In this document: piece after piece, positions 9,201 to 10,232 of the stretch
How positions within the stretch are numbered: the first letter of the stretch is position 1
Layout of the letters: every line of letters starts with the position of its first letter
IMG/VR virus record: IMGVR_UViG_2896607866_000002
Strand: one strand, 5' to 3'
From: a virus
Taxonomy: Duplodnaviria > Heunggongvirae > Uroviricota > Caudoviricetes
Length of the DNA: 10,232 nucleotides
Position numbers: made by a program

Positions 9201-10232
9201 ACTGGCCGAACAAACCGTCGTCGTTCCCGGCACGAATGCCGCTGCCGTAGTACTGCCACGTCTGGCACTCCAGCTCATCACGCTGCGTAAGCAAAGAGAC
9301 GAGGTGGCGCTTGAGGTAGAACAGCGAGTTCTTGCTCACCCTCTTTACCCGGTCCTGACCAGTATGCCCGGAGTCGGTGTCAGGACCGCAGCCAGACTCC
9401 TCACCGAGGTCGCCTGCCGCGCCTTCGCCTCTGCCGCACATCTCGCTGCTTATGCTGGCCTTGCGCCGGTAACTCGGCGATCCGGCTCGTCAATACGCGG
9501 TGAGCATCCCTCGCGACGGGGTAATAAAGCTCTCAAACGGGCGTTGTTCCTGTCGGCCTTCGCCGCGCTCAGGGATCCGCTCTCCAGGGCTTACTACACC
9601 CGCAAAATGAGTCAGGGAAAACGACACAATCAGGCGCTTATCGCCCTGGCGAGACGACGCTGCGACGTTCTGTTCGCCATGATGCGCGATGGGACTTTTT
9701 ATACCCCGCAGGGGTCATAACATGCTTGACAACTTAATAGGGGCACCCCCCCGACTTTTGACGCAGTGTCTTGTTAACAGGGGGATTTACCATGCTTATT
9801 GGCTATGTACGCGTATCAACAAATGACCAGAATACCGATCTACAACGTAATGCGTTGAACTGTGCAGGATGCGAGCTGATTTTTGAAGACAAGATAAGTG
9901 GCACAAAGTCCGAAAGACCGGGGCTGAAAAAACTGCTCAGGACATTATCGGCAGGCGACACACTGGTTGTCTGGAAGCTGGATCGGCTGGGGCGCAGTAT
10001 GCGGCATCTTGTCGTGCTGGTGGAGGAGTTGCGCGAACGAGGCATCAACTTTCGTAGTCTGACTGATTCAATTGATACCAGCACACCAATGGGACGCTTT
10101 TTCTTCCATGTGATGGGTGCCCTGGCTGAAATGGAACGTGAACTGATTGTTGAACGAACAAAAGCAGGACTGGAAGCTGCTCGCGCACAGGGACGAATTG
10201 GCGGTCGCCGTCCCAAACTTTCACCAGAATAA

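Follow-up and report, generated by a model that had tools for sequence, protein, structure and literature searches.

The pin gene at the end of the stretch of DNA analysed here (10,232 nucleotides, hereafter the window) is very probably a dead gene: truncated by a nonsense mutation, cut off from the sites on which it would act in cis, and left as an inactive relic of a DNA inversion switch. This pinE-type gene of the Gin/Hin/Pin/Cin family is the final phage gene, located where a degraded myovirus-type prophage ends on the right; the prophage carries ipaH and has yfhL, at its 5' end, as its integration site. One C-to-T substitution converted Gln147 (CAA) into TAA. Translation now covers the catalytic domain, the long E helix and the GRRPK minor-groove arm, and stops short of the three helices of the helix-turn-helix (HTH). 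The part lost is the domain that recognises the 26-bp crossover sites. Independently, the crossover site in cis has been exchanged for the upstream region of ipaH, with neither a second site nor an inverted cassette present. Because HTH and crossover sites are both gone, the remaining enzyme would have no specific DNA binding and nothing to invert. Both lesions were already present in the common ancestor of the island copies found in Shigella flexneri, S. sonnei, S. dysenteriae and enteroinvasive E. coli (EIEC). The features of the window are listed in Table 1.

Table 1 Features of the window, with positions counted from its first nucleotide; L numbers denote loci used for comparison
Feature	Position	Strand	Basis and remarks
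yfhL	1-261	-	Holds the left att core
Left att core TTCACACATATCACAATT	213-230	.	In 5' end of yfhL; comparison with K-12 empty site
Phage integrase fragment, left end of island	470-1576	+	Pfam Phage_integrase 1.2e-6; 430-aa version in L005
IS3-family insertion sequence	1565-2841	-	ORFs 2471-2773 and 1617-2438; 99%-identical copy elsewhere in L015 and L016
Tail-fibre remnants	2913-5840	+	ORFs and Pfam, compared with fuller prophage L001
Fibre C-terminal fragment	2913-3431	+	
Caudo_TAP assembly protein	3434-4033	+	
Broken phage_tail_N fibre gene	4002-5266	+	
DUF4376 protein	5217-5840	+	
ipaH, type III effector E3 ligase gene	6020-7846	-	Pfam NEL 2.5e-75, LRR_TTSS; IpaHb in L001 and L002
Ancestral ipaH-pin intergenic region (ipaH upstream region)	7847-8296	.	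No pix-like site
IS110-family insertion sequence	8297-9745	+	Transposase 8524-9720; Pfam; boundaries from IS-free loci such as L007
Native pin leader	9746-9791	+	C-run, then GACTTTTGACGCAGTGTCTTGTTAACAGGGGGATTTACC with GGGGGA ribosome-binding site; no crossover site
pinE-type serine DNA-invertase pseudogene, translated part	9792-10232	+	146 codons and premature TAA; ORF, Pfam, e14 identity
Nonsense codon 147 (TAA; CAA = Gln in intact relatives)	10230-10232	+	Comparison of loci; window ends here

The pin reading frame begins with the ATG at 9792 and specifies a product of 146 amino acids; its TAA forms the last three bases of the window. The initial annotation had let the gene start at 9721. 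The open reading frame itself is real, but that span overlaps the end of the IS110 element by 25 bp; the native leader begins only at about 9746. An alternative in-frame start, TTG at 9771, is unlikely because the GGGGGA ribosome-binding site precedes the ATG at 9792. The product matched Pfam Resolvase (PF00239) with E=7.6e-52 over profile positions 2-144 of 145 and contains YVRVSTNDQ, the catalytic motif of the Din family (YxRVSTxxQ, with the nucleophilic serine). The DNA-binding domain that a functional member of this family also possesses was absent, as no Pfam match to HTH_7 was obtained in the 146-residue product, which ends in GRIGGRRPKLSPE; the earlier description of a complete catalytic domain without an HTH was thus accurate.

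The translated part is closest in kind to pinE of the e14 element of E. coli K-12: nucleotide identity is 95%, 144 of the 146 residues are identical, and the start context and the YVRVSTNDQ motif are shared. Since the first 200 nt are 96% identical to e14 pinE, the Fis-dependent recombinational enhancer in the 5' part of the gene is probably retained. The pseudogene status as such is already known, being annotated in RefSeq: in E. coli RMDEC465 (L001) and E. coli O121 strain 201805972 (L002), both EIEC, the NCBI pipeline labels the near-identical gene 'pinE, site-specific DNA recombinase, pseudo, internal stop'. Literature searches for a published account of this pin pseudogene yielded nothing usable. 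Beyond correct annotation, the importance of the finding is small.

The truncated sequence is widespread. The assembly collection lists the exact 146-residue fragment in 756 of its blocks, among them CP000034.1 and HE616528.1, which we take to be S. dysenteriae Sd197 and S. sonnei 53G, respectively. It also occurs in several other Shigella-type chromosomes, always between ipaH and the chromosomal yfhH. Four complete E. coli genomes carry the fragment at 99.6% nucleotide identity, and the two of these that were inspected are human clinical isolates with the same island. Such a spread fits the young age of Shigella, though it would also be compatible with retention by selection.

Upstream of pin, the comparison of loci separates an old arrangement from recent insertions. 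In loci free of insertion sequences, position 8296 joins 9746 directly, and this ancestral ipaH-pin spacer occupies the place that pixR holds in a working system. The IS110 element, whose transposase carries the Pfam domains DEDD_Tnp_IS110 and Transposase_20, sits within a C-run, 46 bp before the pin ATG, its junctions being ambiguous within the run. It is present in the S. flexneri-type lineage of the window and in EIEC RMDEC465, and absent from L002 and L004-L013. Instead, L002 has an IS1 (8195-8963 of that locus) with a 9-bp target duplication, ATGACTGTG, about 80 bp upstream of pin, whereas the spacers of L004-L013 have no insertion sequence. The spacer has been struck independently by two different insertion sequences, given the IS1 in L002 and the IS110 in other lineages. 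Because IS110 is confined to a few lineages, the others having IS1 or nothing, it is a late, lineage-specific addition to an already dead gene. It probably removed any residual transcription; between IS110 and the ATG, a promoter scan detected no sigma-70-like promoter, which is a weak negative, and pin is presumably not expressed.

Some details of the insertion site deserve mention. The flanks of IS110 (8291-8297 and 9746-9753) both read as a C-run followed by G, with six C on the left and seven on the right, and the C-run in IS-free loci (L012 and L013 among those noted) measures 6, 7 or 17, as a hypervariable homopolymer would. In RMDEC465 the element occupies the same site (L001 11960-12020), but the transposase is frameshifted and the right end of the element carries 13 additional bp, GGGGCACCCCCTA. 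The flanking pattern may reflect sequence-guided targeting by this family of insertion sequences. An Rfam scan of the window gave no match, including the non-coding left end of IS110 (8298-8523).

A rival explanation is that the catalytic-only product is expressed and has been co-opted. For instance, it might join the full-length Din-family invertases of phages already resident or newly arriving (Mu-, P1- or e14-like) in mixed dimers or tetramers that lack activity, and thereby modulate their switches. The dimer interface and the E helix are kept up to residue 146, the identical product recurs in very many assemblies of several Shigella species, and S. sonnei 53G has a second, intact invertase 8 kb away. 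However, nothing resembling a promoter lies between IS110 and the ATG, and the existence of three upstream states (IS110, IS1, or no insertion sequence, the C-run being 6 to 17 long) speaks against conserved regulation there. R50K and E79A are found in the catalytic part in one S. flexneri lineage. The wide sharing is itself explained by the 98-99.8% identity of the whole island among its copies, and loci found by exact protein identity, as L004-L011 were, are biased towards unchanged sequence; polymorphism within the lineage offers too few sites for a selection test. We regard co-option as very unlikely, and slightly more unlikely still its strictest form, in which the 146-residue fragment is produced and kept because it interferes, as a naturally dominant-negative serine recombinase, with the full-length invertases of other prophages or infecting phages.

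The origin of the stop codon became clear from sequence beyond the window. Locus L014 (GCA_900457175.1) matches the whole window with 12 mismatches and extends past its end. Directly behind the TAA it contains 37 in-frame codons of an HTH remnant followed by the original TAA (L014 16232-16345). The remnant, WAQAGRLIASGVSRQKVAIIYDVGESTLYKRFPARVI and then a stop, is in frame in L014 and in 12 other Shigella/EIEC loci, so the in-frame HTH remnant that the initial annotation had suggested looking for downstream of 10232 does exist. When the premature stop is read through, pin comprises 184 codons, the length of PinE, with the original stop conserved. Codon 147 is TAA in all 13 loci of the lineage (L001, L002, L004-L014) and CAA in each of the four intact relatives compared (e14 pinE of K-12, L017, L019 and L023), which upholds the proposed CAA-to-TAA change. 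Relative to e14 PinE, the window thus differs by TAA for CAA at this codon, and the HTH part differs at 7 of 37 residues.

These data leave practically nothing in favour of a sequencing or assembly error, or of an artefact of the window cut that hides an intact gene. The exact coincidence of the stop with the window end had invited this suspicion, but it is refuted by the recurrence of this TAA in 13 loci that were sequenced independently, on different platforms and from different species and strains, and the NCBI annotation likewise records an internal stop. Furthermore, no CAA allele of the lineage was recovered: a pattern across the stop codon found two matches in GTDB representatives, both TAA, and a CAA-specific 26-mer had 0 matches in metagenome contigs. 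Equally negligible is a naturally short serine recombinase whose functional homologues end here and which works with a separate DNA-binding partner, a reading for which only the intact catalytic domain speaks; it is refuted by the HTH remnant with its original stop that directly follows, by the best 120 homologues listed for the restored protein (173-247 aa, all Resolvase plus HTH_7), and by the closest intact relatives, which read through CAA at codon 147.

Structural comparison shows what the nonsense mutation removed. With Gln restored, the protein is collinear over its full length with PinE and Gin, which makes it a Din-family member by descent, and residues 1-182 align with the structures 3UJ3 and 4M6F of Gin of phage Mu (E=3.7e-92). 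Restored residues 140-182 align with the Hin DNA-binding peptide 1HCR (52 residues), and by this alignment the stop falls seven residues into the DNA-binding region, past the GRRPK arm and before the three helices. Compared with the Hin domain, the window product keeps only the minor-groove arm and lacks the three site-reading helices. In Hin, Gin and gamma-delta resolvase, the HTH domain recognises the 12-bp half-sites. By analogy with the biochemistry of these enzymes, the fragment would be unable to bind a crossover site.

Of the codons that differ from L023 (protein P0001, 98% identical), the nearest intact relative, 1 is nonsynonymous and 18 are synonymous upstream of the stop, whereas the counts beyond it are 5 and 8, respectively (Fisher p=0.029). 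Amino-acid differences number 1 among the 146 residues ahead of the stop and 5 among the 37 of the remnant (p=0.0014). They include P160S, an altered C-terminus, and V172E in the G-(V/I/L)-STLY recognition helix, a position that holds V, I or L in nine of nine relatives examined. Judged by these sequence differences, the remnant appears to be under relaxed constraint relative to L023. However, nucleotide divergence from L023 is 13.5% after the stop and 4.3% before it. Since synonymous divergence is also raised after the stop, some of the change at the C-terminus may stem from mosaic ancestry instead of decay. Among lineages and species the remnant is polymorphic (R-to-K, I-to-S and a 3-bp insertion).

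The second lesion concerns the crossover sites. A Din-family switch has a pair of inverted 26-bp sites (12-bp halves, 2-bp core), one of them just ahead of the invertase gene, that flank an invertible segment with opposed fibre and assembly cassettes. In e14, pixL and pixR, read from K-12 as CTCTCGAAAACCTTGGTTTGGGAGAA and TTCTCCCAAACCAACGTTTATGAAAA, flank such a segment of 1.8 kb, and the second site lies 54-80 bp upstream of pin. We scanned for two inverted half-sites TTNTCNNAAACC around a 2-bp core, with a maximum score of 18 and 200 shuffles of the window as control. The best score was 17/18 for e14 pixL and pixR, for the site of the e14-like phage record L017, and for the site that precedes the ATG of the 96%-identical intact invertase of L019 by 56 bp. 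By contrast, the maximum was 13/18 in the window, in L014, which reaches 4.7 kb downstream of pin, and in the 24.5-kb fuller prophage L001, while the maxima of the shuffled windows ranged from 11 to 14. None of these three sequences therefore contains a pix-, gix- or hix-like site above shuffle level. The core motif AAACCNNGGTTT, with up to two mismatches, occurred three times against 4.9 expected, and not near the fibre genes or pin. The absence of gix/hix-type sites at the fibre junctions and upstream of pin, reported initially for the window, thus extends to the paired inverted sites sought in the wider region. The scan covered the window, L014 and L001; any distant sites surviving elsewhere in the genome would be irrelevant to the truncated enzyme, as it lacks the HTH.

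Homology to functional pin genes begins only about 22 bp upstream of the ATG (approximately 9770-9774). The sequence further upstream is common to only 4 of 3,022 matching E. coli records, each at least 99% identical to the lineage, and the two of these that were inspected (L001 and L002) are both island copies. It follows that pin had already lost its upstream site in the ancestor from which all copies descend. The crossover site that normally lies 50-80 bp upstream of pin is gone in every island copy, replaced by the ipaH upstream region. As a side observation, the heptamer TTCTCCC at 8287-8293, just before the C-run, equals the outer seven bases of TTCTCCCAAACC, the pix half-site found in e14 and L019; once the insertion sequence is taken out, it would lie 49 nt, not 80 nt, from the ATG, and the remainder of the pix site is unmatched.

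There is also nothing left to invert. All fibre open reading frames of the window are on the plus strand, with no inverted alternative fibre cassette among them, and the fibre genes of L001 likewise all lie on one strand. The order of ipaH on the minus strand followed by pin on the plus strand is identical in 11 of 11 assemblies with their gene layout listed, and no inversion isomer was seen among these at the assembly level. A relic of a host-range inversion switch, as initially proposed, is therefore a fitting description of the gene itself, but its action on the fibre genes of the window is not supported: these are genes of another type, all on one strand, and nothing marks them as the former targets of pin.

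Working relatives illustrate what has been lost. In L019 (E. coli contig JJOM01000131; protein P0006), an intact invertase of the same subfamily belongs to a complete switch, in which a fibre C-terminus and assembly gene on the plus strand are followed by assembly and fibre genes on the minus strand and by the site upstream of the invertase. In the window, the invertase gene stands alone, truncated, next to ipaH. The layout of L019 is the one expected of the ancestor or of a working relative, and e14, with both its sites and its opposed cassettes, differs from the window in the same way. The closest phage record, vB_EcoM-689R6 (92% at the nucleotide level), is a partial and oddly joined record of an e14-like prophage, which contributed only one more 17/18 positive-control site.

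The setting of pin is a degraded prophage island. It is bounded by an 18-bp exact att core, itself part of an imperfect repeat some 45 bp long. One copy of the core falls within yfhL, in its 5' end, and the other was located at L014 16581-16598, 235 bp beyond the pin remnant; the empty site in K-12 has a single copy. Given the left copy inside yfhL and the single-copy empty site, the prophage integrated into the 5' end of yfhL and rebuilt its start. At the left end, the IS3 element cuts the 3' end of the integrase gene and stands in for most of the prophage: L001 retains the baseplate and has its fibre genes in complete form, and by comparison with it the whole stretch from the integrase to the distal portion of the first fibre gene has been lost. 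As its integrase is cut and the intervening prophage lost, the island is immobilised. The phage_tail_N fibre gene, present as two overlapping open reading frames of 304 and 117 aa, is a further pseudogene, because L001 has a single 467-aa gene at this place. The exact sequence of the 304-aa frame was found in only three long contigs, L014 among them.

At the right end, ipaH is a cargo gene between the fibre genes and pin. The initial annotation had placed pin about 5 kb from the fibre genes, with ipaH and an IS110 element in between. Both are indeed there, as the domains NEL/LRR_TTSS and DEDD_Tnp_IS110/Transposase_20 confirm, whereas the distance was slightly generous, at 3.95 kb from the end of the DUF4376 gene (5840) and about 4.5 kb from the fibre body gene. 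The separation itself stands, in that the interposed ipaH and the site loss are common to all island copies, but IS110 is not its cause, because it came late to an arrangement that every copy shares. Effector genes have been reported to follow tail-fibre genes beside the attachment site (PMC3530523), and chromosomal ipaH paralogues to be surrounded by prophages and pseudogenes (PMC9046306). The window fits this picture exactly and differs from it in nothing material.

The two lesions of pin also say something about the history of the island. The shared nonsense mutation and site loss provide one more dated marker of the yfhL ipaH island in several Shigella species, and since these species share the lesions, the island was already crippled in this respect in their common source. 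Considering that it would be unable to drive DNA inversion, this pin copy has no place among the phase-variation or host-range switches of Shigella or EIEC genomes.

Two further observations concern the neighbourhood of the island. At 5717-5744, in the DUF4376 gene, the window has 11 clustered mismatches to L014 that equal the sequence of a paralogous fibre-DUF4376-ipaH module (L016), which adjoins a chromosomal alpha-2-macroglobulin-type gene. The patch looks like a short gene conversion between two ipaH prophage remnants of one genome. The paralogous module in L015 and L016 was also tried as a guide to the right boundary of the ipaH insert and rejected, as homology ends inside ipaH.

Finally, S. 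sonnei 53G carries its second, intact invertase of 190 aa about 8 kb upstream of the truncated pin (L007 1208-1871). It has both Resolvase and HTH_7 domains and 71% nucleotide identity to the pin fragment. A gix-like site (15/18, TTCCCGTAAACCGAGGTTTTCAGGAA) lies just upstream, a Mom-family gene is nearby, and a tail-fibre assembly gene is found on the strand opposite to the invertase. This region is a Mu-like remnant and may still be a working or half-working switch.
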